Assembly (NCBI RefSeq): GCF_000020225.1
Contig: NC_010655.1
Location: 2,100,001-2,132,000 of the forward strand
Direction of reading: 5' to 3'
DNA: 32,000 bases
Source: Akkermansia muciniphila ATCC BAA-835
GTDB taxonomy: Bacteria > Verrucomicrobiota > Verrucomicrobiia > Verrucomicrobiales > Akkermansiaceae
Made by a program: the position numbers and the translations under genes. Each line of letters begins with the position of its first letter. Position 1 is the stretch's first letter. The notes beneath the pieces were generated by a model, which made no database searches, was not told the origin of the DNA, and saw nothing but the letters and a program-made list of their open reading frames with translations. This document shows positions 57 to 32,000 of the stretch, in pieces.

Positions 57-254
57 AGCGGATTAAAAATTCGCCGTGTAATGGGAACCGGGCCAATATA
101 CCAGAGTTGCCCCGCCTGTTTGCTTATACTGATAAGGATAGAACGATGGATGCCCCTGATTCCAGACCAGATAAAGCATGGAAATACTCTTCTGGATGAT
201 GCGCAACACCTACGGAATCAATGTTTAAGCTTGTAGGAGGATTTTTAATCCGCT
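57..254. repeat. Perfect 14-bp inverted repeat pair bracketing a 170-bp AT-rich segment upstream of the autotransporter gene; candidate invertible promoter element
   Basis: AGCGGATTAAAAAT at 57-70 is the exact reverse complement of ATTTTTAATCCGCT at 241-254. The match stops on both sides (56/255 and 71/240 do not pair). The right arm ends 63 nt before the ATG at 318. The repeat is read directly from the sequence; inversion is inference. Confidence 0.45.
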
Positions 255-317: not shown

Positions 318-3300
318 ATGAAGTTGCACCTCCCTTTAAGTCTTTTGTCCTCCCTGCTTGCCTGCATGGCTGCTGTTTCCTCACCGCATGCCGTTGCGGA
401 AACCTATACATGGCTGGGGGGGACGGTGGATGTTCATTTAAATACTAACTGGACTCCGGATTACGGCAGCAGCAACTGGTCGGCAACATGGGCCGGAACG
501 GCGACAAACAGCATGCGTTTTGATGCGGGTAGCATGACGGGGCAGGTCAAGGCTCTCCAGGCTTCTTTCAATACGCTTTCACTTGGGGGAATAACCGTTA
601 CGGATAATTCCGATGGATTCAGCGTTTCCAAAAGCAACGGCTCCAACCGCACCGTTAATTTACGTGATGGAGGAGAAGGGTATACGCTGTTTGACATAGG
701 CGGGGATTTTTCTCTGGGAGTTGCCAGCCAGGTATGGAACGGAGTTGTTTTCAACTCCAGCGCCCTGTTTAACATTGCCTCCGGCAAGACCATGAATATT
801 TACGGTGGTCTGGGAATGGCTGGAACGGGAGCCAGGACGATGACGGTGGGGACGGACGGTTTTGCGGGAACCCTTATCCTGAATACGGCTGCCCAGTCTT
901 CCATGACGGCTGATTGGGTCATTTCCCATGGGGCGACCGTTCAACTGAACAATGCCGCGGCTTTGGGGTCCGGATCGGTCAGCTTAAACGGCGGCAATAT
1001 AACGGCCCAGCACGATGCTGTTTATAACAATGCCCTGGCCGTGAGCGGTTCTTCCGGCATGAACGTGAATGCTGCCACGCGGTTTGCCAGTGTCAGCCTT
1101 TCCAATGCCGCTGTCCTGAACATGAACGGAGGGACGCTTGGCATTGCGAATGCCGGCGTTTTGACACTGGGTTCTTCAGGGACCATTACGGGGAATTTGA
1201 CGCTGGGAAACACGTCTCTCCTGAATTTTTCCGCTCTTCCGGCTTCCGGATCATATTTGCTTAATGTAACAGGAACGCTGACCGTGGGCAGTGAATTGCT
1301 TCTGGGGCAGGAAACGATGGAAGGCGTAGCCTGGACGGAGGGTTCCTACAGTCTGGTTCATGCGGGTTCCGTAGAGGGAGTCCCTGCCAGCTCTTTCGTT
1401 CTGGGCGACAATCTTCTGGGTTCATGGAGCACGGAAAACAATAATCTTACCCTGGTTGTGGAGCAGGTGGCTTTGCTTGAATGGAAAGGCGGCGACGGGA
1501 TATGGTCTGTAACTGCTCCGGCTTCTTCACCGTGGAAAAATGAAGGTGTGTACAATAATGCTTCCGGAGTGGTCATGGGAGATATTGACGGAAGTTCTCT
1601 GCAAACAGTAACCATTGATGGAGTTGTCTCTCCCTCAATCATGATGGTCCAGGCGGATACGACGGATTATGTGTGGAATGCCGCAGATGAAGGAGGTGCT
1701 CTGGAAGGCAGCGGTAATCTGGAGAAGACCGGCAGTGCCAAGCTGACCATTAATATGGATAATGCTGATTATGCCGGAAAGGTCATTTTGGGGGGTGGAA
1801 CGCTTGAAATGGGGAATGATGCCGCTTTAGGCACAGGTGATCTGGCATTTGACGGCGGTACCCTCCGGTATGGAACAGGGGTAACGGCGGATATTTCCGG
1901 GCAGATTTCCACAACGAGCAAAAGTTCCGTGAAGGTGGATACCAACGGTAATAACGTAAGCTGGGCTTCCGCGGATCATTACAAGGCTCTGAACTTGGAA
2001 AAGTCCGGGAACGGTGTGTTGACTCTCGGCGGCGCCGTGTATACGGGGGGCCTGACAGTAGATGAAGGAGGCGTGTCCATTACTTCCGGCAGTGTTCAAA
2101 CGAAGTTTTCTGCGGGAGTCACGGTAAATGCAGGAGGAACGCTTGCCATTTCCAGCGCCATTAACGGAATATCGACCGGAGACAACGCCAATATCGTCAT
2201 CAACGGCATGAGCGGAGCGGGGCGGATTGAGCTGGACAACCAGGCTGCCAAATCCCGTTTTTATATTTCCGGAGATAATTCTTCCTTTACCGGGGAATTG
2301 GTGGCGACCGGACTGAACAATAATCCGGGAAATACGAATGATGCCCGCGATCTTCAGTTTGCCACTGCTGCCAGTATGGGAAGAGGAACGGTAACCCTGA
2401 ATGGACGCGGGTTCTGGCTGGGAACCGCCAATTCGGCGGATACCGCCGTCATGGCAGCAATCAATGTTCTGGAGAAAGGTTCCTATCTGAACGGGGGAAG
2501 CGGAAATTCCTATTACTTTGGCGGGGCGTTTACCGGTTCCGGCACCATGACCACGGCTCTGGGCAATGCGTTCGCATATTTGACGGGAGATATGACCGGG
2601 TTCCAGGGAGCATTCTCCCACACGGGTGATTCCCTGTTTACCTGGGCATTCGGCAACAATACGGAGGCAGTTCTGAATGATGGAAAGCTTTTCGGGGATG
2701 GAGTGGTTTTGAAGGCTGATGGAGGGACAAGCCAGTTTAAATTCTCCTATACCAACGATATTATACTGATGAACGCCACTGTAGGCGCAGAAGGGGCCTT
2801 GAACGCCAGGGTGGAACAGGCCGGAACCGGAACGCTGGTGCTAACGCAGGACAATAGCGCGACGGGAACGCTCACCATTACCAGCGGCACGGTTCAGCTG
2901 GGCAATGGAGAGGTTTCCGGCTCCTGGACAGGGCAGATTACCGGAGCAGGGGCTCTGGTGGTGGACAGGTCTGCAGGTTCCTCTGCTCTGGAACTGAACT
3001 CCGCCAACGATTATCAGGGTGGAACTACGCTGAACGGCGGCACAGTGAAGGCGTTGGGCGCCGGTTCCTTGGGAACTGGCGATGTTTTCGTCAACGGCGG
3101 TTCCATCCTGGATATGAACGGACAGGCGATTGCCAATAATGTCGCTATTACCAAAGGAGGGCTGCAACATGCCGGGGCCTACGCCACGTCGGGCGGCGTA
3201 ACCGTAAATGCGGAGGCTGATTCCGGGGACATTGACCTGGGAGGCCTGTCCGGCGACAAAGTGGGGGGCATCAATACCACCACGGCGGGAACGGCCATTA

Positions 3301-6179
3301 CCGGCCTGACGGGAAATTTGACGCTGACGGGGAATAATGCCCTGCATGTGGGGGTGGAAAATACCACGTATGCTTCTGACGGAGACCAGAAAAGTCTGAT
3401 TCAGTTCAATGATGCGGCTACGGGGACTGTTTCCTTAGGCGGAGATTCTTCCGATCTCACGCTGCACATGGATATTGATACGGATATCCTGATTGCCATG
3501 CGCGAACTGGATTCTGTCGGTATCCTGCTGACAGACGGGACGATTACCGGATTGCCGGACAGCGGTCTGGTGGCGTGGCTCAACCAGCATCTTACGTTTA
3601 ATGCCACACTGGAAAGCCTGGGGTTCGGCATCCAGGGAGTGGATGGAGGAAACATTATCATTTCCGGAAGAACGGACCAGATTTACATTGCTTCCGTAGA
3701 CGGTTCCTCAGTGACGGAAATTCCGGCTTTGAATTCCTATGCCCAGGTGATTGTTGATAAGGATCTTTCTCTGAATTTTGATGTTCCCGCATCTAATACG
3801 GACAAGACCATCGTTCGTCATCTTTCCTCCGGCACCAGCGCTACTGGCAATCTGGCAGTGAATGTCGCCGGAGAAGGTTCCTTGAATATTGAACTGGCCA
3901 ACGATTTGGACGATTCCGTTTTTAACGGAAATCTTATCGTAAACGGAAACGGTGCGGACCTGGTCAAAACAGGAGAAAAGACGCTGGTATTGAATGGGAG
4001 TGTCAGTACATCCAATGCAGTGATTGCCAAAGAAGGCACACTGGTTCTGAACGGGAGCGTCAACAACATCGGCACGCTGGCTTTGGCCTCCGCTTCTGCA
4101 GATGCAATTGCGCGTACCGTGATTGGTGGGACTGTCACAGCCACTCTGTCGGATGAAGATGAAGGCGGTTCCCTGGAGATTGCTGCGGGGGGAACACTCA
4201 AGACCGCCGGAGATTCCGTCCTGGACCAGGCGACCTCCATTTCCGGAGCAGGGAGTTTGAATATTCAGGAAGGTTCCGCCCTCTCCCTGACGGGGAAAGC
4301 CGGCCTGTCCGGAACTTCCGTGACGCTGAACGGAACGCTGGGTCTGTCCGGGACTGGGGAAAAATCCATCCAGTCCCTCTCCGGTTCCGGAACGCTGGCG
4401 TTGAACGGCGGCACTCTGTCTGTCACTTCCGCTTCCGCCAGAAACGGTTCTTTCTCCGGTACGCTGGATGGAGAGGGACGTATTGACGTATCCGGCAGCG
4501 TAACCCAGGTAATGCAGACAGGAAGCTCTACGTATGACCTGGGCGTTCATGGAGGGGGGACGCTGGTATTAAAAGGCACTTCTGCCGCCCCTGCGCTTGA
4601 TTACCGTAATGTTGCAGTAGGTTCTGCCGGCACCCTGCGTATTGAAGCCATTGGGCATGAGGCCGGAGACTCCAATACCTCCTTAAACGTCGGCAGCATT
4701 GATTTTCAAAGCGGCTCTACGACGGAATTCGTTTATAATTTAAGTGCGTCTGATCCTTTCGGCTCCGCTATGCTGACGGCGGATTCCATCACCATTGGAA
4801 ATGGGGCGGGATTCTCTCTTGCCAACATGGAAGGCAACACGGGGCTGGGAACGTATGACAACCTGGACGGCGTGGTGCTGATGACAGCGGACACGATTGA
4901 CGGACTGACGGAGGGGGAATCCATATCCGTGGGGACTTCCGGCCTGTTTGCCGTTTATTACAAGGATGCGACCATGAGCCGGGAGGGCAATCATATTGTG
5001 CTGAATGCCACGGTGCAGCAGGACAATATTTTTACGCCTGCGGTGAATTCCCATAATTCCGGAGCAGGTTCCGAACTTCTGTGGGAGGCAAAAAATAATC
5101 TGGATGCCACTTCCCAGCTTGGGCAGGCGATGCATTCCATCAGCACCATGATTACGGGAGATAATCCCGACTTGGCGGGGGCATCCAGGGCTTTGGCAGC
5201 AGTGGCTGGGAGCACGGTCAACGCGCTGGGGACGGCACAGAGGGACGCCCTGCGCGACCAGATGGGCTGGATCAGGAACCGGACCACCCTCATGGGCGTC
5301 AACCCGGCCTACGTCAACGACGACCTCCCCCGCTTCCACATGTGGATGGAAGGCACGGGCTCCTACGCCAAGCTCGACACCCGCGGGGATGAAAGCGGCT
5401 ACCAGCTCACCACCTGGGGAGGCACGGTAGGCATGGACGCGGACCTCAGCGACCGCCTCACGGTGGGAGCGGCCTTCACGGCCGGCTACGGCGACCTGAC
5501 GGCCGGCGCGGCGGACAGCGCCGACGGGCACCTGGACAGCTACTACGCCAGCCTCTTCGGCCGCTACCAGGACAGGCGCTGGGCGCACACGCTCATCCTG
5601 ACGGGAGGGTGGAACGACGCGAAACTCAACCGTACGGTCAACTATGGGGAAGGAAGCTACGGGACGCAGGGAAGCACCAGCGGGTGGGGCTTTGGAGCGA
5701 TGTATGAACTCACCTACGACGTATACCTCAACGAAAACCGCAGCAGCGTGCTGCAGCCGCTGTTCAACGCCTCGGTGGTGACGACGCGGATGGACGGCTA
5801 TGAGGAAACGGGTGCGGGCAACGCGGGCCTGAACGTCGGCAGGCAGGACTGGACGACGGGGACGCTGGCGCTGGGCGGCCGGTGGATGGGCCTGGTGGGC
5901 AGCAACATCTTCGGACGAGAAGCGCTGGCGGAAATCCGAGTAAACGCGGCGCAGGACCTGGGAGACCGGAGAGGGGAAACGAACGTCTCTCTGCTGGGCA
6001 ACCCCGGCTTTGCGCAAAGCGTGAGGGGGGCGAAAGAGGGAACGACGGCGCTGCAGCTGGGAGCCGGACTGAGCGTGCCTGTAGGAACGAAGGGAACCAT
6101 CTACGTGAACGGGAACGCGGACATCCGTGACGGGTCCAGCGCACTGAACGGAAGCGTCGGCTACCGCTACGACTTCTAA
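318..6179 (+). CDS. Giant autotransporter outer-membrane protein (1953 aa): signal peptide, long beta-strand-repeat passenger, C-terminal autotransporter beta-barrel
   Basis: The N-terminus MKLHLPLSLLSSLLACMAAVSSPHAVA is signal-peptide-like. The Gly/Thr/Asn/Leu-rich passenger carries recurring units such as EKTGSAKLTINMDNADYAGKVILGGGTLEMG, EKSGNGVLTLGGAVYTGGLTV and GTLVLTQDNSATGTLTITSGTVQLG, typical of autotransporter-associated beta-strand repeats. The last ~280 aa (HMWMEGTGSYAKLD...GAAFTAGYGDL...SVGYRYDF) have alternating-pattern barrel strands and a terminal aromatic F. Confidence 0.93.
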   Translation: MKLHLPLSLLSSLLACMAAVSSPHAVAETYTWLGGTVDVHLNTNWTPDYGSSNWSATWAGTATNSMRFDAGSMTGQVKALQASFNTLSLGGITVTDNSDGFSVSKSNGSNRTVNLRDGGEGYTLFDIGGDFSLGVASQVWNGVVFNSSALFNIASGKTMNIYGGLGMAGTGARTMTVGTDGFAGTLILNTAAQSSMTADWVISHGATVQLNNAAALGSGSVSLNGGNITAQHDAVYNNALAVSGSSGMNVNAATRFASVSLSNAAVLNMNGGTLGIANAGVLTLGSSGTITGNLTLGNTSLLNFSALPASGSYLLNVTGTLTVGSELLLGQETMEGVAWTEGSYSLVHAGSVEGVPASSFVLGDNLLGSWSTENNNLTLVVEQVALLEWKGGDGIWSVTAPASSPWKNEGVYNNASGVVMGDIDGSSLQTVTIDGVVSPSIMMVQADTTDYVWNAADEGGALEGSGNLEKTGSAKLTINMDNADYAGKVILGGGTLEMGNDAALGTGDLAFDGGTLRYGTGVTADISGQISTTSKSSVKVDTNGNNVSWASADHYKALNLEKSGNGVLTLGGAVYTGGLTVDEGGVSITSGSVQTKFSAGVTVNAGGTLAISSAINGISTGDNANIVINGMSGAGRIELDNQAAKSRFYISGDNSSFTGELVATGLNNNPGNTNDARDLQFATAASMGRGTVTLNGRGFWLGTANSADTAVMAAINVLEKGSYLNGGSGNSYYFGGAFTGSGTMTTALGNAFAYLTGDMTGFQGAFSHTGDSLFTWAFGNNTEAVLNDGKLFGDGVVLKADGGTSQFKFSYTNDIILMNATVGAEGALNARVEQAGTGTLVLTQDNSATGTLTITSGTVQLGNGEVSGSWTGQITGAGALVVDRSAGSSALELNSANDYQGGTTLNGGTVKALGAGSLGTGDVFVNGGSILDMNGQAIANNVAITKGGLQHAGAYATSGGVTVNAEADSGDIDLGGLSGDKVGGINTTTAGTAITGLTGNLTLTGNNALHVGVENTTYASDGDQKSLIQFNDAATGTVSLGGDSSDLTLHMDIDTDILIAMRELDSVGILLTDGTITGLPDSGLVAWLNQHLTFNATLESLGFGIQGVDGGNIIISGRTDQIYIASVDGSSVTEIPALNSYAQVIVDKDLSLNFDVPASNTDKTIVRHLSSGTSATGNLAVNVAGEGSLNIELANDLDDSVFNGNLIVNGNGADLVKTGEKTLVLNGSVSTSNAVIAKEGTLVLNGSVNNIGTLALASASADAIARTVIGGTVTATLSDEDEGGSLEIAAGGTLKTAGDSVLDQATSISGAGSLNIQEGSALSLTGKAGLSGTSVTLNGTLGLSGTGEKSIQSLSGSGTLALNGGTLSVTSASARNGSFSGTLDGEGRIDVSGSVTQVMQTGSSTYDLGVHGGGTLVLKGTSAAPALDYRNVAVGSAGTLRIEAIGHEAGDSNTSLNVGSIDFQSGSTTEFVYNLSASDPFGSAMLTADSITIGNGAGFSLANMEGNTGLGTYDNLDGVVLMTADTIDGLTEGESISVGTSGLFAVYYKDATMSREGNHIVLNATVQQDNIFTPAVNSHNSGAGSELLWEAKNNLDATSQLGQAMHSISTMITGDNPDLAGASRALAAVAGSTVNALGTAQRDALRDQMGWIRNRTTLMGVNPAYVNDDLPRFHMWMEGTGSYAKLDTRGDESGYQLTTWGGTVGMDADLSDRLTVGAAFTAGYGDLTAGAADSADGHLDSYYASLFGRYQDRRWAHTLILTGGWNDAKLNRTVNYGEGSYGTQGSTSGWGFGAMYELTYDVYLNENRSSVLQPLFNASVVTTRMDGYEETGAGNAGLNVGRQDWTTGTLALGGRWMGLVGSNIFGREALAEIRVNAAQDLGDRRGETNVSLLGNPGFAQSVRGAKEGTTALQLGAGLSVPVGTKGTIYVNGNADIRDGSSALNGSVGYRYDF

Positions 6180-14142: not shown

Positions 14143-14402
14143 GACCGCTGGCCGCCACTATGGCATAAACGGCTGCGGGTGTAAATCATTCGTTGGGAAT
14201 GTTGACGCGGCCGTTGCCGCAGGGCGGACAACCCTGGACTCCGGGGAAAAGCGAACAAAAAGGGGGGAAAGGATGCGTTCCGGAAGAAGAATCCGAAAGC
14301 CGGAGGAAAGGGCTTTCCCGCGGCGTTCATGCCTTGAATTTTCGGGAAGAAGGTCTTTTTGCATTTGCCAACAGCGTTTAAGAGAGGTTTACTGATGCGC
14401 GT

Positions 14403-19905: not shown

Positions 19906-20193
19906 AACGGAGAAACATGATGCAAAAAATACGGCCTCTTGACAAGCCGGGGGATGAAAATCTTCCCCGCGCCGCGTGGACCGTTTTTTCCGTCAGTACG
20001 GCTTCATTCCGGTGGGCCGGGAGGAAGGCCGCCACGTATTCGTGCCGCAGGCGGCAGGTGCCGTGGGTTGATACGTTCCTGCTGGCTTGTCAGGCAGGGA
20101 ACCCCGGAAAAGAGCGGGTTTGGACGTGAAGGAAAGTTCCGCCGCATGGAAAAGGGTTGTATTTTCCTCCGGTGGGCGTATAGGATGGCACGA

Positions 20194-23845: not shown

Positions 23846-24000
23846 TACCTCTCCATCATAGGGAAAAAGGGGTTTTTTTTCAAGAAAGACCCTGTCTTTT
23901 TTTCATGGTATTTTTCCCGGAGGGTCTCTGTCCATTTCTCCGCGCCGTGCCGGGATTCTTCTTGCGTTGGCGGGCGGGAAATGGTTAAGATAAGCTTACT

Positions 24001-25545: not shown

Positions 25546-25807
25546 TGCGGCTTTCCGTGAAGGGATGGCCATCCGGAATTTTTTCATTGCTTTAAAGAAC
25601 CGCGCGTGACGGAGGAATAAGTCTTTTTCCTTATTTTGCGCTGGGAAATATTCTTCAGGGGAGGCGCGATGCCATAGTGGTTCTTTCTGCTGAGCACGGG
25701 GTAATTAAGCATTGTATAGATCAATGTATGTGCTACGATTCTTCCGCATTTAATAATCATGCTTTGCCGTTTCCTTGGAACCGGATTAATTTTTCAACTA
25801 ACAGGAT

Positions 25808-26767
25808 ATGAGTAAAATAAGCCATATAAAATATATGGTGCTTTGCAATCTTCCCTACCGTTTGCGGGAAATCGCCGGACGGATTGCGAAGAAATGCAGG
25901 AGAAGGAAAGACCGGTCTCTTGAAGCGAAGCTGGAGGATATTCGCAATTTGCTTATTTATAACCACCCTATTTCCTCAGTTCCCCCGGCGACGGGGAAGT
26001 TGAGGCTCCTTCAGGACGGCAATACGGTTTTGCTGGCCCTTTTTGCGCGCAAATGCCGGGAAAACGGACTGCGGTACTGGCTGGATTACGGCACTTTGCT
26101 GGGGGCGGTAAGGCACAGGGGCTTTATTCCGTGGGATGATGATCTGGATGTGAGCATGATGAGGCCGGAGTTCGACCGCCTGCTGGAACTGCTTCCCGTT
26201 CTTTTCCCCCGTGAGGAAGGATTTACCTGGAACAGGCACGCCTTTCTGCAAATAGGATATGAGGGCACCCCCCTCAACCTTGATGTGTATCCCTATCATT
26301 TTTATGCAGAGAGTCTTTCATCTCCGGAACAGCATGAAAAGCTGGACAGGCTTTTGAGCGGATTTAAGAAAGACGTGGTGCTGGTAGGTTCCAGGATGAA
26401 CCTGACCGATGGGCAGGTTCAGGAGAAAATCCGCCAGGATATTCTGGAAGGAAGGGATGCTGCCGGGGAAGATGAAGCCCCCGGGATTTTTCTTTCTCCT
26501 GCCATTACGTTTACAAAAAACACGCACCTTTCCTATGAAACGTTCTTTCCCCTTGGCTCCGCAGAATTTGAGGGGATAATATTTTCCGTGCCCAACCATG
26601 CCCGCCAGTACCTGCAATTTTTTTACGGCGACTATCTGTCTTATCCGGAACGCATCCAGTTCAAGCATCCTTCCGTGAAGGCCATGGTGGAGAAGGTTCC
26701 CTTTGAGGCGGCGGTCAACCGTTTCATTGACGTTTACGGAAAGCGGATTGATGCGCTCATGCCATGA
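25808..26767 (+). CDS. LicD-family phospho-headgroup (CDP-alcohol dependent) transferase, copy 1
   Basis: The hallmark LicD motif is LRYWLDYGTLLGAVRHRGFIPWDDDLDVSM. The stop overlaps the next ATG (ATGA at 26764-26767). ATG 25835 is an alternative start. Confidence 0.88.
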   Translation: MSKISHIKYMVLCNLPYRLREIAGRIAKKCRRRKDRSLEAKLEDIRNLLIYNHPISSVPPATGKLRLLQDGNTVLLALFARKCRENGLRYWLDYGTLLGAVRHRGFIPWDDDLDVSMMRPEFDRLLELLPVLFPREEGFTWNRHAFLQIGYEGTPLNLDVYPYHFYAESLSSPEQHEKLDRLLSGFKKDVVLVGSRMNLTDGQVQEKIRQDILEGRDAAGEDEAPGIFLSPAITFTKNTHLSYETFFPLGSAEFEGIIFSVPNHARQYLQFFYGDYLSYPERIQFKHPSVKAMVEKVPFEAAVNRFIDVYGKRIDALMP

Positions 26768-28216: not shown

Positions 28217-29266
28217 TTATTTCTTCCGAAATGGGGAGAATCTGTTCAGTATGGAGGTGTTCCATTCCACAAAGGACTGGAGTGTAGGAACCGGAATGTT
28301 TAATTGCTCCGCCAGATAGCAAATGGGTTTGGTGCCCAGAGGAACATCTTCCGTAAAGTAACGGGAAGAAAAATCGGGAATCCATCCTTGTTTCCGGCGG
28401 GTCATGGGAGCTTTAACCCCATGGAATGCCGGAATAGATTGAATCTTTTTAGTCAACTCTACGGCATTTCTGGATTCATAATAATCTAGGACGGGAATGA
28501 TGTCCTTTCCGATTTCCATGCCGGGACAACAGGAACAGAGGGTCAGAAGTTCTCTATCTGCCTGGATGTACAACTCACTGGCCTCCTCCGTCCATTCTTC
28601 ATAAAAAAGAAACTGCTTGTCATAAAACGTTCCTTCCCTGTAGTGGCGAAACAGACTCATGCAGCGGGAAGGGTGGAGAAGGGGGTTGGAGTTGGTCAAC
28701 AGAAAGGGCCAGGGAGAAGAAAGATGAGTCAGAGGAGTGTCAAATAAGGTTTCCAACATGGCGGACCAATGTTCGGCATTATTTCCTGGGGCTACCCATA
28801 TCCTGTTAAGAGGGCGGCTTCCGAGAATGGAGACGGAATGTCCATATTCCTGCGTCCGACAAATCAGGGGAACCTTGTATATTCCCATCAGGCTGACGGT
28901 GGAAGTCCAAGAGGGATCTTCTGCCATCTCCATGACCTCCGGAGTACCGGGTACAATAACGAGCCCCTGTTCTCGATGCAGATAGGGTTTAATGCGGTGG
29001 CATACCTCCCGAATGCCAAAGCGGGGAACCGCCACCAGCACAAGGTTGCAGTCTTTCAATGTTTCCGGATGGTTGCTGATATGCCCTAGGGGAGCATGGT
29101 GCGTAGTACCGTTTGGAAAGATAGCGGAGAGACTTTTTCCCCATTGATTAGGGTTTCGGGTTAGGATATTGACATGTAGGCCGCGTGTACCCAGCCATCC
29201 CGCCATGGCATGGGCCAGGTTGCCGCCGCCGCAAATGCCTATGACAGGAGTGGAAATTGTATTCAT
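28217..29266 (-). CDS. NAD(P)-dependent octopine/nopaline (opine) dehydrogenase-family protein
   Basis: The N-terminal Rossmann motif is VIGICGGGNLAHAMAGWLGTRG. The ~350-aa size and the motif LLTNSNPLLHPSR resemble the opine-dehydrogenase family. The family call rests on my recognition only. The ATG shares one nt with the upstream stop (TGATG). Confidence 0.68.
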   Translation of the reverse strand: MNTISTPVIGICGGGNLAHAMAGWLGTRGLHVNILTRNPNQWGKSLSAIFPNGTTHHAPLGHISNHPETLKDCNLVLVAVPRFGIREVCHRIKPYLHREQGLVIVPGTPEVMEMAEDPSWTSTVSLMGIYKVPLICRTQEYGHSVSILGSRPLNRIWVAPGNNAEHWSAMLETLFDTPLTHLSSPWPFLLTNSNPLLHPSRCMSLFRHYREGTFYDKQFLFYEEWTEEASELYIQADRELLTLCSCCPGMEIGKDIIPVLDYYESRNAVELTKKIQSIPAFHGVKAPMTRRKQGWIPDFSSRYFTEDVPLGTKPICYLAEQLNIPVPTLQSFVEWNTSILNRFSPFRKK

Positions 29267-31158
29267 CAGGAGGCTGAAGTGGAACAGGATGAAAAAGGGG
29301 ATTCTCCGTTAGTGGGACAAGTAGAAGACGGTTCCGAGCCGGTTTCTGCATGCATGGCCCGGACCAGGGCATCATTGTCGGTTGCGTCTCTGACGGCGAT
29401 ACGGATGAATTCTCTGCCTTCAAATCCTTTTTTCCGGCTACAGTCCTTAACAAGGATGGAGTGGTTTTTCAGCAGAAGGCCGGTCAGGGAGCGGGCTTTC
29501 ATGGGGGGCTTGACCTCGCACATGAAATAGTTTGCCTGGGAGGGGAAAACGTTCAGGAAAGGCACGCGGGAGAGTTTCTGCATGAAGCGGTCCCGTTCCT
29601 TCATGAAACGGTTGCACGCGCGCACGTAGGATTGCTCGTATTTCCCGAAGATTTGCATGTAGAATTCCGCGATGGAATTGATGTTCCAGATGGAAACGTC
29701 TTTTTTTATCCATGCCGCCAATTCCCTGTCTGCGGAGGCCAGAACACCCAGGCGGAGGCCCGGAACGCCGTAGGATTTGGAAATGCTTTTTACCACGGCC
29801 AGGTGGGGATATTCTTCCAGGATGCCGTCTTTCAGCAGCGTATTGTCCGGCATTCCGCAGGAGAAGTCTACAAAGGATTCATCCACGATCAGGCGGATGC
29901 CGCGGGTTTTTGTCCACAGGCAGAGGCGTAGCACATCGCCTTTCGGCAGGAAGAATCCGGAAGGGTTTCCCGGATTGACGAGGAGCAGGGTACCGATGTC
30001 TTTCCCGGAAAAGAATTCCATCAGGTCGTCCGCCGTATAAGTGAAATTCCGGGAAGCGGTATGGAAGGGAACCACCATATCCGGTTTCACCCGGTTGGGG
30101 TATTCTTCAAAGGTAGGGTAGATGACCCCCATTTTCCCTTCCAGGCGGGACATGAGCGCCTTAATGAGTTCCGCCGCGCCGTTGCCGATGCAGATGTATT
30201 CCTGGCTGATGCCGAAGTATTTTGCCGCCAGCAGGCTGTTGACTCTCATTCCGGACGGGTATTCCCTCACTAGGCGTTCAAAATTCGCCTTGAGTTCGGA
30301 CATGAGGCGTTTGTTGGGGAAATAGGGATTGACCAGGTAACAGAAATCCCTGATGCGGGGATAGCGCCAGTAGCCTCCGTACCGGGATTCCATCAGGCGC
30401 AGGTGTTCTTCCCTGTCCGGGGTGAATATGGAGGCTGCGATGTCCAGATCCTGGATGTCGTCTATTTCATACCATGCTTCGCCGCCGAGGCGCAGCGCCT
30501 TGATTTCCGGCTTGTCCAGCAGGGCGATGACCCGCAGCACCTGTTCGTAATATTCATTATTGCCCAGGGCTTTGCTGTAGGCTGTAAGAAAGGGGACGTA
30601 ATGGGTCCGGGAGAATTCCCTGCTGAATTTGTAAATATTGACTGTTTTAAAATATTCCGTCTTTTTCTTGTAGGAGAATTTGCTGCCGGGAATGAATTGC
30701 CTGATGTTGTCGTCTTCATCCAGAGTGACGACCGTGCCGTCCATCCAGCTTTCAAATTTGGCGACGAGAGCAAGGCTGGGGTAGGGATGGCGGAGCAGGG
30801 CATCAATAACGGAGTCTTCAAAAATCAGGTCGGATTCAAAGAGCAGCGTATCGTCCTGAAGCAGGTGTTCCTTGGCCAGGTACAGGGAATAAATATTGTT
30901 GGTGCTGGCGTACAGGGGATTGTCCACATATTCCACAGGGGTGGAAATGTCCAGCTGGGAAAGGAAGGTTTTGAGTTTTTCCCCCTCATAACCCGTAACA
31001 ATCACGATTTTTTCCAGAGACGGGGAAAGGCGGTCCAATTGTCTCATCATGCGTTCTATCAGCGTCACTCCGTTGACCTGGATCATGCACTTGGTATTGT
31101 TCCGGGTGAGCGCTCCCAGTCTTTTTCCCATTCCGGCCGCTAAAATGATCGCCTGCAT
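29266..31158 (-). CDS. Fusion protein: LicC-like sugar/alcohol-phosphate nucleotidyltransferase (aa 1-~245) + CobD/HisC-like class I/II PLP enzyme (aa ~260-600)
   Basis: The N-terminal part is MQAIILAAGMGKRLG...TKCMIQVNG...NNIYSLYL...AWYEIDDIQDL, which parallels the CTP:phosphocholine cytidylyltransferase LicC. The C-terminal part has DFCYLVNPYFP, LLLVNPGNPSG, the PLP-lysine context VKSISKSYGVPGLRLGV (K461) and FIRIAVR. It ends in a Ser/Thr/Pro-rich 25-aa tail. Confidence 0.85.
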   Translation of the reverse strand: MQAIILAAGMGKRLGALTRNNTKCMIQVNGVTLIERMMRQLDRLSPSLEKIVIVTGYEGEKLKTFLSQLDISTPVEYVDNPLYASTNNIYSLYLAKEHLLQDDTLLFESDLIFEDSVIDALLRHPYPSLALVAKFESWMDGTVVTLDEDDNIRQFIPGSKFSYKKKTEYFKTVNIYKFSREFSRTHYVPFLTAYSKALGNNEYYEQVLRVIALLDKPEIKALRLGGEAWYEIDDIQDLDIAASIFTPDREEHLRLMESRYGGYWRYPRIRDFCYLVNPYFPNKRLMSELKANFERLVREYPSGMRVNSLLAAKYFGISQEYICIGNGAAELIKALMSRLEGKMGVIYPTFEEYPNRVKPDMVVPFHTASRNFTYTADDLMEFFSGKDIGTLLLVNPGNPSGFFLPKGDVLRLCLWTKTRGIRLIVDESFVDFSCGMPDNTLLKDGILEEYPHLAVVKSISKSYGVPGLRLGVLASADRELAAWIKKDVSIWNINSIAEFYMQIFGKYEQSYVRACNRFMKERDRFMQKLSRVPFLNVFPSQANYFMCEVKPPMKARSLTGLLLKNHSILVKDCSRKKGFEGREFIRIAVRDATDNDALVRAMHAETGSEPSSTCPTNGESPFSSCSTSAS

Positions 31159-31205
31159 AAGTATTCTAATTTGTCTTCAGAACCTGAGAAAGAACCGGGA
31201 ACTAT

Positions 31206-31381
31206 GTTTAACGGATTGAGCATCCGCCGTCAAAGTAAAAATTTCTGTAAGAATATGTTAATGGGATATTACCCGGGCGAAAAGAAAAAACCGCCTTTTA
31301 TGTTTCATCGCAATCCTTTTATTTTTCATTGATTTAACTTTGGACAGAATGGGAGAAACGTTTAACGGATGCTCAATCCGC
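31206..31381. repeat. Two 22-nt lox-like sites, identical except for a reverse-complemented 5-nt core, flanking 139 bp in a divergent promoter spacer; candidate inverton
   Basis: Site 1 at 31206-31227 is GTTTAACGGAT-TGAGC-ATCCGC. Site 2 at 31360-31381 is GTTTAACGGAT-GCTCA-ATCCGC. This is equivalent to a perfect 15-nt inverted repeat, CGGATTGAGCATCCG (31212-31226) and CGGATGCTCAATCCG (31366-31380). Confidence 0.5.
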
Positions 31382-31492
31382 TTGTTGCCAATACCGTGGA
31401 AAGGGAAGGATAAGGTCTGTCTGCATTTTGGAAAAAGCAGCGTTAATATCATGGAACGGGTGTTTTCTCCGAAAAGGATAATTTGTTTTTCA

Positions 31493-31520
31493 TTGACTTG
31501 TAAAAAGTGGGGGATAAGGT
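31493..31520 (+). promoter_or_regulatory. Candidate sigma70-like promoter for the second LicD gene
   Basis: TTGACT (31493-31498), a 16-nt spacer, then TAAGGT (31515-31520). It lies 74 nt upstream of ATG 31594. The -35 is part of a recurring TTTTTCATTGAYTT motif. This is sequence-pattern evidence only. Confidence 0.3.
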
Positions 31521-31593: not shown

Positions 31594-32000
31594 ATGAAGC
31601 TGCCATCATTCATTACCGCCGGAAGGACTGGAAAATTAGTAAGGGGAAAGCATTGGTGGGTGACGGAAGTCCGGTGCTGCGGCCTGAAAGTGCTTTCTTC
31701 CTGCACGGATAGGAAAAAGCGTTTCATCCGTTTTTTCGGTATTCCATGCGGACGGTTCAAGGTGGGCCGGGAAGGTGAAGCCTCCCAATTGGGCAAACTG
31801 GTAAAAGCTACCGTTCGGGCCGAGGAGATGCCCCAGGCGTCCGGAGTGCTGAGGATTGTGCAGCAGGCCATGACCTGTTTTTTGAATGAAGTGGCCGGAA
31901 TTCTTGAGGAGGGCGGTTATCCGTACTGGCTTGATTTCGGGACGCTGCTGGGCGCGGTGCGGCACCGGGGCTTTATCCCCTGGGATGACGACCTGGATAT
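31594..32000 (+). CDS. LicD-family transferase, copy 2 (5' partial; runs off the window; not in the supplied ORF track because it has no stop)
   Basis: My translation of the frame in which 31594 is a first codon position is open from 31579 to the window end. It reads ...MPQASGVLRIVQQAMTCFLNEVAGILEEGGYPYWLDFGTLLGAVRHRGFIPWDDDLD. This matches the copy-1 motif at the protein level with different codons. The start is either ATG 31594 (third-position GC is elevated from ~31650 on) or ATG 31828, which would give a canonical LicD N-terminus. Confidence 0.8.
   Translation, partial: MKLPSFITAGRTGKLVRGKHWWVTEVRCCGLKVLSSCTDRKKRFIRFFGIPCGRFKVGREGEASQLGKLVKATVRAEEMPQASGVLRIVQQAMTCFLNEVAGILEEGGYPYWLDFGTLLGAVRHRGFIPWDDDLD

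Follow-up and report, generated by a model that had tools for sequence, protein, structure and literature searches.

[quoted passage not shown] The switch itself is already known, being a catalogued, read-verified member of an established inverton family; the hypothesis of an invertible switch at this position, which an earlier sequence-only reading had put forward, is therefore correct, though it is not a new discovery. Our full account holds that the element is a phase-variation switch of the CGGATT..AATCCG inverton family, acted on by a recombinase in trans, and that it employs a split promoter to turn an adjacent operon ON and OFF. Taken as a whole, we consider this account likely to be right. 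The stretch that was analyzed, called the window here, is 32,000 nucleotides long and corresponds to about 2.098-2.130 Mb of the MucT-type chromosome. The features that carry the argument are the following, in window coordinates.

31212-31226, no strand: left recombination site and inverted-repeat arm, CGGATTGAGCATCCG (perfect repeat with the right arm, family consensus, published inverton listing)
31227-31365, no strand: invertible segment, 139 bp (reverse-complemented in 9/21 contigs; published reads in both orientations)
31366-31380, no strand: right recombination site and inverted-repeat arm, CGGATGCTCAATCCG (repeat search, motif count, published listing)
29266-31158, minus strand: nucleotidyltransferase::class I/II aminotransferase fusion, 630 aa, ACD05567.1, the proposed first gene of the regulated operon (Pfam NTP_transf_3 and Aminotran_1_2)
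28217-29266, minus strand: octopine/nopaline-dehydrogenase-family gene, 349 aa, ACD05566.1 (Pfam Octopine_DH)
31594-32000, plus strand: LicD-2, 338 aa in full, running past the end of the window (Pfam LicD; gene calls in contigs L001-L004)

The 435-nt spacer between the 630-aa gene (minus strand) and LicD-2 (plus strand) holds the site pair, with 53 nt on the side of the 630-aa gene and 213 nt on the LicD-2 side. A repeat search of the 32-kb window returns the two arms as a perfect inverted repeat of 15 nt (100% complementarity, 139-nt interval), just as the sequence-only reading had described it. The likeness that it saw between the two 22-mers is also present: both have GTTTAACGGAT and ATCCGC in common, and their 5-nt centers, TGAGC and GCTCA, are reverse complements of one another. 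The left flanks resemble each other in direct orientation as well, with 71% similarity over 31 nt between 31197-31227 and 31351-31381. The pattern CGGAT-N5-ATCCG is found 2 times in the 32-kb window where 0.04 would be expected, and 0/100 shuffles contain two or more matches. The one copy of TTTTTCATTGATTT that had been placed inside the segment is indeed there, at 31322-31335; comparison with other invertons shows that it is not the motif shared by the Akkermansia family. The possibility that the direct repeat stems from a tandemly duplicated spacer unit of ~155-165 bp was considered and rejected, the alignment revealing similarity only at the sites and at a short motif. Searched against Rfam, the spacer gives no match above noise, and ARAGORN finds no tRNA in the 32-kb window, so the site does not read as a tRNA gene or a remnant of one.

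Public contigs contain the segment in both orientations. Across 21 contigs, the window included, it lies in the window orientation in 12 (the window, L001-L004, L085, L086, L090, L106-L108 and L113) and is flipped in 9 (L087-L089, L091-L093, L109, L110 and L112). The nine metagenome contigs L085-L093 were typed by BLAST and flank alignment, with 6 flipped and 3 window-like for the 169-bp module, and L106-L113 were retrieved by way of three variants of the 630-aa protein. Contigs encoding the identical 630-aa protein (MucT-identical) are all in the window orientation. Comparison of L113 (window-like) with L112 (flipped) gives 103 differences inside the 139-bp segment and 0 in the other ~4.5 kb; similarly, L108 (window-like) and L109 (flipped) differ at 103 positions inside the segment and by 4 SNPs outside it over 6.7 kb. 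L085 (window-like) and L087 (flipped) show 5/1581 flank differences from each other, and each is separated by >20 from the window lineage. The ends of some contigs are tied to the repeats, with L111 stopping exactly at the inner edge of a repeat and two SPAdes contigs stopping 40 nt past the far repeat, which amounts to one 56-mer graph edge; these ends fit mixed orientations within one sample. An exact look-up of the small orientation-specific ORFs finds records only for those of the window orientation, the flipped ORFs being too short for gene calling. A neighboring published inverton, 2092093-2092283, lies ~6 kb left of the window (L095 3742-3931) and upstream of an 1842-aa autotransporter. 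It is flipped in CP024738.1 (L096 3743-3932) relative to CP071807.1 and CP174100.1, and comparison of complete genomes therefore already shows switching in the Akkermansia inverton family.

The element is listed in Table S5 of the hCom2 inverton study (bioRxiv 10.1101/2024.06.01.596983 = PMC11892184) as A-mu-ATCC-BAA-835__0:2129241-2129256-2129395-2129410, group 138, with the inverted repeat CGGATTGAGCATCCG. Compared by eye, the sequence of the entry is identical to window 31212-31380, and the gene gaps of 53 nt and 213 nt match too. The PhaseFinder counts given there come from one defined clonal strain, and forward denotes the reference orientation, which is that of the window. Isolate culture yielded 1692 forward and 154 reverse reads, pooled mouse stool 4823 forward and 6628 reverse, first-generation mice 527 forward and 1307 reverse, and fifth-generation mice 1751 forward and 1069 reverse (PMC11892184, Table S5). 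These counts, thousands of reads each way, supply the read support for both orientations that the sequence-only reading had proposed as a check. The same study reports 32 'group 138' invertons in ATCC BAA-835, and its Table S9 marks the genes on both sides of the present element as 'regulatable', ACD05567.1 and ACD05566.1 included, by geometry alone (PMC11892184). The inverted-repeat motif CGGATT..AATCCG of Akkermansia invertons is credited to Jiang et al. 2019 in a 2026 mBio paper (PMC13343947). For the cps1 inverton, of the same family, flipping was demonstrated by PCR/restriction digest and qPCR, and tracked capsule ON/OFF (PMC13343947).

Both orientations thus occur in assemblies, including assemblies with identical flanks, and in published reads, which bears out the proposal of a recombinase-type site pair driving inversion of the 139-bp segment. 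Since each site is itself a 5+5 dyad, it could be thought that the dyads are operators of a dimeric regulator, or weak hairpins, with no inversion taking place. However, 9 contigs and thousands of published reads carry the segment inverted, and the exact reverse-complementarity of the two centers is not something that an operator requires, leaving this explanation with next to no likelihood. It could also be argued that the opposite orientations are assembly artifacts, or old inversions fixed in particular lineages, considering that the contig evidence amounts to one orientation per contig and that all of the MucT-identical contigs retrieved are in the window orientation. This we hold to be very improbable. 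Assembly k-mers are longer than the 15-nt repeat, both orientations are seen in backgrounds separated by 0 to 4 SNPs over 4.5-6.7 kb, the contig comparison also detects the neighboring published inverton as flipped in CP024738.1, and the PhaseFinder reads derive from a single defined strain.

The anatomy of the family was derived from 24 published group-138 invertons with 48 oriented sites. The oriented site consensus is CGGATT-NNN-(A/T)ATCCG, with T6 and A11 invariant in 48/48 sites, and in these 24 members the two centers of a pair are without exception reverse complements, and they vary widely from one inverton to another. Arms of 6 bp (CGGATT/AATCCG) around a 3-nt core are found in most members. 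The window site departs from the 48-site consensus only at position 10 (C for A/T), which gives it 5-bp arms and an atypical 5-nt core; the symmetric arms and asymmetric core described in the sequence-only reading are thus a property of the whole family, but the 5+5+5 layout is not typical of it. Motif-matching inverted sites, the presence of both orientations, the catalogue listing and a promoter-like motif in the invertible DNA make the element a member of Akkermansia group 138. In site consensus, size range, intergenic position by surface-related genes and one-sided TTGACN it agrees with the other members, and it differs from them by the C at position 10, by an inner segment that at 139 bp is the shortest among the 24 compared, and by a flank duplication that builds a 45-nt palindrome. 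The promoter-like motif is a TTGACA-like hexamer at an offset of exactly 1 nt from the site, present at just one of the two ends; at least 5/6 positions match in 18 of the 24 members and at least 4/6 in 21, with column counts of T22 T22 G21 A21 C20, and the opposite end averages 2.0/6.

A second site pair of the same family is found at window 57-254, with sites at 59-73 (CGGATTAAAAATTCG) and 238-252 (AGGATTTTTAATCCG). It lies 63 nt upstream of a 1953-aa autotransporter gene (318-6179), and TTGTAG occurs one base from the gene-proximal site. The pair has no entry in Table S5, in which the list jumps from 2092093 to 2129241, and it has the same orientation in the three complete genomes retrieved; it may be either an uncatalogued switch or a decayed (locked) one. 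Just left of the window start, at L095 9593-9627, the first autotransporter gene is followed by a perfect palindrome of 17+17 nt, CAGAGCCGTTCCGGAAT/ATTCCGGAACGGCTCTG, which is probably the terminator of that gene.

The elements relevant to the output of the switch are the following.

31228-31233, minus strand: -35-like box TTGACG, located 1 nt from the left site and directed at the 630-aa gene when the segment is in the window state (18/24 family rule; putative promoter role)
31205-31210, minus strand: candidate fixed -10, TAAACA, 17 nt downstream of the -35-like box and outside the invertible DNA (read from the sequence; weak, three flanks, no final T)
31163-31190, minus strand: TTCTCA-16-TAGAAT, a fixed sigma-70-like site with its end 5 nt short of the 630-aa gene's ATG (consensus scan only)
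31493-31520: LicD-2's own promoter-like site, TTGACT-16-TAAGGT (read by eye)
31197-31211, plus strand: outer left flank GGGAACTATGTTTAA, direct-repeat partner of 31351-31365 (repeat search)
31351-31365, plus strand: inner right end GGGAGAAACGTTTAA, direct-repeat partner of 31197-31211 (repeat search, RNA folding)

With the -35 box one base from the 15-bp site, the -10 position falls just outside the invertible DNA. At this predicted position the gene-proximal flanks of two neighboring invertons read TAATAG and TAATGA, and TAA is therefore found there in 3/3 gene-proximal flanks (the window inverton and the two neighbors) and in 0/3 distal flanks. The distance from site to gene is 53 nt here, compared with 63 and 73 nt at two autotransporter invertons. 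After a flip, the -35-like box faces LicD-2, where the -10 position reads TTGTTG and is not -10-like. These observations suggest a split promoter, with the -35 in the invertible DNA and the -10 in the fixed flank, a model to which three flanks with imperfect -10s lend moderate weight. Because the -35-like box is one-sided and faces the 630-aa operon, ON/OFF control of that operon appears more likely than a toggle between the divergent units. The switching between the two units that had been envisaged from the sequence is accordingly not favored, given the single box and the lack of a -10-like partner on the LicD-2 side after the flip.

Inversion also changes the predicted structure of the flank. 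The flip sets GGGAGAAACGTTTAA against the left site opposite GGGAACTATGTTTAA, resulting in a 45-nt near-palindrome centered on the left site. RNA transcribed toward the operon is predicted to fold in the flipped state with -22.5 kcal/mol (z -4.4), after which GGUUCUUUCUC follows, as compared with -9.6 kcal/mol (z -0.3) in the window state. Neither of the two neighboring invertons has the flank palindrome, which is specific to the window inverton. On the basis of this folding, the hairpin could insulate the operon in the OFF state.

The mechanism that we propose would begin, in keeping with what is established for conservative site-specific recombination, with a recombinase encoded elsewhere, which would bind the palindromic arms CGGAT(T)/(A)ATCCG and exchange strands in or next to the asymmetric center. 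With the center identical within a pair and differing between invertons, each pair would be specific for itself, and rearrangement among the ~30 genomic invertons would be avoided. In the window (forward) state, TTGACG would stand 17 nt from the fixed TAAACA, with the 15-bp site serving as the promoter spacer, and the 630-aa/349-aa operon would be ON. In the flipped state, the box would face LicD-2 without a -10-like hexamer, the left site would center the 45-nt hairpin-forming palindrome upstream of the operon, and the operon would be OFF. The net effect would be heterogeneity within the population in the phospho-alcohol (LicD-type) decoration of a surface glycan. A broader version of this proposal is that Akkermansia invertons are split-promoter switches using the 15-bp site as spacer, that the hairpin reinforces the OFF state in the present case, and that the pair-specific 3-5-nt center inside invariant arms, a form reminiscent of a tRNA anticodon arm, points to one integrase-like tyrosine recombinase acting in trans on ~30 loci without cross-recombination; this we offer tentatively, as possible rather than probable.

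Several observations count against the main account. The promoter, in its direction and nature, is a prediction from sequence, and TAAACA, TAATAG and TAATGA all lack the final T that is usually conserved. The family member 489820, in which the listed repeat reaches into the flank, has T-CAG at the -10 position. Scanned by consensus in both orientations, the segment contains no complete sigma-70 promoter; together with the lack of an adjacent recombinase gene, this sets the arrangement apart from the fimS type. In addition, the fixed site TTCTCA-16-TAGAAT is placed between switch and start codon, where it could serve the operon whichever way the segment points, and basal or leaderless transcription independent of the switch may result from it. 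Finally, the published 'regulatable' flag covers both sides.

Two other explanations of the output have to be weighed against these same data. In the first, a complete outward promoter in the segment would serve the 630-aa operon in one orientation and LicD-2 in the opposite one, as might be expected of a switch placed between divergent genes that are both flagged 'regulatable'. Also in favor of such a toggle, TTTTTCATTGAYTT is present 3 times in the window, always on the plus strand upstream of a LicD gene, with one copy inside the segment pointing at LicD-2 in the window state. We judge the toggle to be distinctly unlikely, however, as the element conserved in the family is a single -35-like box at one end and the flipped box meets TTGTTG at the -10 position. 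Moreover, the right site is 213 nt from LicD-2 as against 53, 63 and 73 nt to the regulated genes in the three cases inspected, and LicD-2 has its own fixed promoter-like site at 31493-31520. As a promoter, TTTTTCATTGAYTT was itself tried and rejected, there being no consistent -10 after its three copies, and other invertons do not share it. Alternatively, TTGACN may not be a -35, and the relevant element may be an unrecognized internal promoter, a state-specific hairpin or terminator, or an asymmetric accessory recombinase site. The -10 candidates are poor, and promoter rules for Akkermansia are not established; furthermore, the flipped state makes the -22.5 kcal/mol hairpin followed by GGUUCUUUCUC, and read-through transcripts could come from a promoter-like site at 31504..31475 that points leftward. 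These points make the alternative worth keeping in mind, unlikely as we believe it to be. The position-by-position match to TTGACA, with a fixed 1-nt offset and at one end only, is that of a promoter half-site and not of a symmetric recombinase site, and the flank palindrome on which a hairpin or terminator would depend is confined to the window inverton and absent from two neighbors. The reading that we favor is ON (window state)/OFF (flipped) control of the 630-aa operon.

Other promoter-like features were noted in the region. The motif TTTTTCATTG(A/C)(T/C)TT is found 3 times (0.4 expected), at 25580-25593, 31322-31335 and 31486-31499, all on the plus strand. The copies lie 95-272 nt upstream of LicD genes (LicD-1 at 25808, LicD-2 at 31594), one of them inside the invertible segment, and the motif may be a regulatory element shared by both LicD genes; no consistent -10 follows it. 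Sigma-70-like sites at 14157-14185, 19917-19945, 23855-23883 and 31163-31190, all on the minus strand, end 5-15 nt before start codons, those of a 540-aa protein, DXR, a methyltransferase and the 630-aa gene. This placement suggests, from sequence position, that very short or absent leaders occur in Akkermansia muciniphila.

The recombinase appears to be encoded outside the region. None of the scanned ORFs of the 32-kb window matches a recombinase Pfam family, which confirms the earlier statement that the window holds no recombinase gene; among the Table S9 genes covered within 5 kb of the switch none is annotated as a recombinase (PMC11892184), and the term 'recombinase' occurs 0 times in PMC13343947. 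One motif is common to ~30 loci, which argues for an enzyme acting in trans. By analogy, invariant arms with pair-specific centers agree with the need of tyrosine recombinases for homology, though the arms are short. Likeness to Cre/loxP and FLP/FRT is one of logic only, namely palindromic arms, an asymmetric orienting center and inverted sites leading to inversion. The loxP and FRT sites have 13-bp arms and an 8-bp spacer, whereas 5-6-bp conserved arms and a 3-5-nt center are found here; with 5-6 bp per arm conserved over 48 sites, the site does not correspond to a lox/FRT-type core with arms of ~11-13 bp and an overlap of 6-8 bp. Nor does the element resemble a Hin/Gin-type serine invertase system, which would have an invertase gene in or beside the segment, 26-bp hix-like sites and an enhancer, as the 139-bp segment carries no gene and the window encodes no resolvase/invertase domain.

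Among characterized switches, the cps1 capsule inverton belongs to the same repeat family, controls a surface glycan and flips in culture, mice and humans (PMC13343947). It corresponds to the Table S5 entry 2523944-..., which contains the published orientation primer, and it has TTGACA one base from the repeat. It is found at another locus (~2.52 Mb vs ~2.13 Mb), and the demonstrated phenotype, comprising capsule, mucus association and biofilm, is that of cps1 (PMC13343947). The cps1 primer sequence has no match in the viral contigs. The capsule promoter invertons of Bacteroides fragilis are alike in being many scattered short invertible promoters by surface-glycan loci, with one shared motif and a recombinase that need not adjoin them. 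The Bacteroides fragilis recombinase is the serine invertase Mpi, and by analogy a serine invertase acting in trans could still be at work in Akkermansia. Bacteroides fragilis differs in its phylum and its repeat motif, and the promoter is described there as lying inside the invertible DNA, whereas the Akkermansia -35 abuts the repeat. In fimS of E. coli (FimB/FimE), 9-bp repeats are recombined by tyrosine recombinases, and a short repeat flanking an invertible promoter likewise turns a surface structure ON and OFF. However, fimS has a complete promoter inside its 314 bp and adjacent recombinase genes, while the Akkermansia switch has no recombinase gene in the 32-kb window. The hybrid promoters formed at IS ends are alike in that promoter elements are split across a recombination junction, with the -35 in the mobile DNA and the -10 in the target; they arise by transposition and are not reversible.

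The family site CGGATT-NNN-AATCCG also occurs as the sequence of a common tRNA anticodon stem-loop, and paired sites sought in viral contigs came up only in phage tRNA arrays (L097-L105). Integrases classically target anticodon arms, and by analogy the likeness might hint at the origin of the recombinase. Read as 4-bp arms and a 7-nt center, the site would fit an anticodon-loop-type integrase target, which is a conjecture.

Hundreds of assemblies encode the 630-aa protein, which is identical to ACD05567.1 of Akkermansia muciniphila ATCC BAA-835. The 349-aa gene overlaps the 630-aa gene by one base and is therefore probably part of the same operon. By Pfam, the genes nearby encode the 349-aa octopine-dehydrogenase-family protein, a cytidylyltransferase::Gfo/Idh/MocA fusion, LicD-1, a methyltransferase and UDP-glucose pyrophosphorylase. 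The locus is a glycan phospho-decoration neighborhood, distinct from the cps1 capsule locus at 2.527-2.553 Mb. Among the matches listed, homologues of the 630-aa fusion that are ~58-64% identical occur across Bacteroidales, Clostridia and others, and the homologues in two other Akkermansiaceae MAGs are only 70-71% identical; the site motif is absent from both of these MAGs. This pattern of identity fits a horizontally exchanged glycan-decoration gene. In metagenome contig L110 (2155-4655), the 349-aa gene is truncated to 236 aa, and after it an N6_N4 DNA methyltransferase and unannotated genes take the place of the usual neighbors, which represents a strain-specific insertion or rearrangement directly after the switch-controlled operon.

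A. muciniphila is a candidate probiotic, and the way it interacts with mucus and with the immune system is shaped by the molecules on its surface. The remaining interest of the element is mechanistic, and concerns the split promoter, the recombinase and the glycan that is modified. The switch places a LicD-type phospho-decoration pathway under phase variation, the parts of which include a nucleotidyltransferase/PLP-enzyme fusion, an opine-dehydrogenase-like enzyme and two nearby LicD transferases. From the published counts, the reverse orientation rises from ~8% in culture to ~58% in mice, and this shift suggests that the decoration is probably under host selection. If the ON/OFF reading is true, most of a cultured population would have the operon ON, and most would have it OFF early in mouse colonization.
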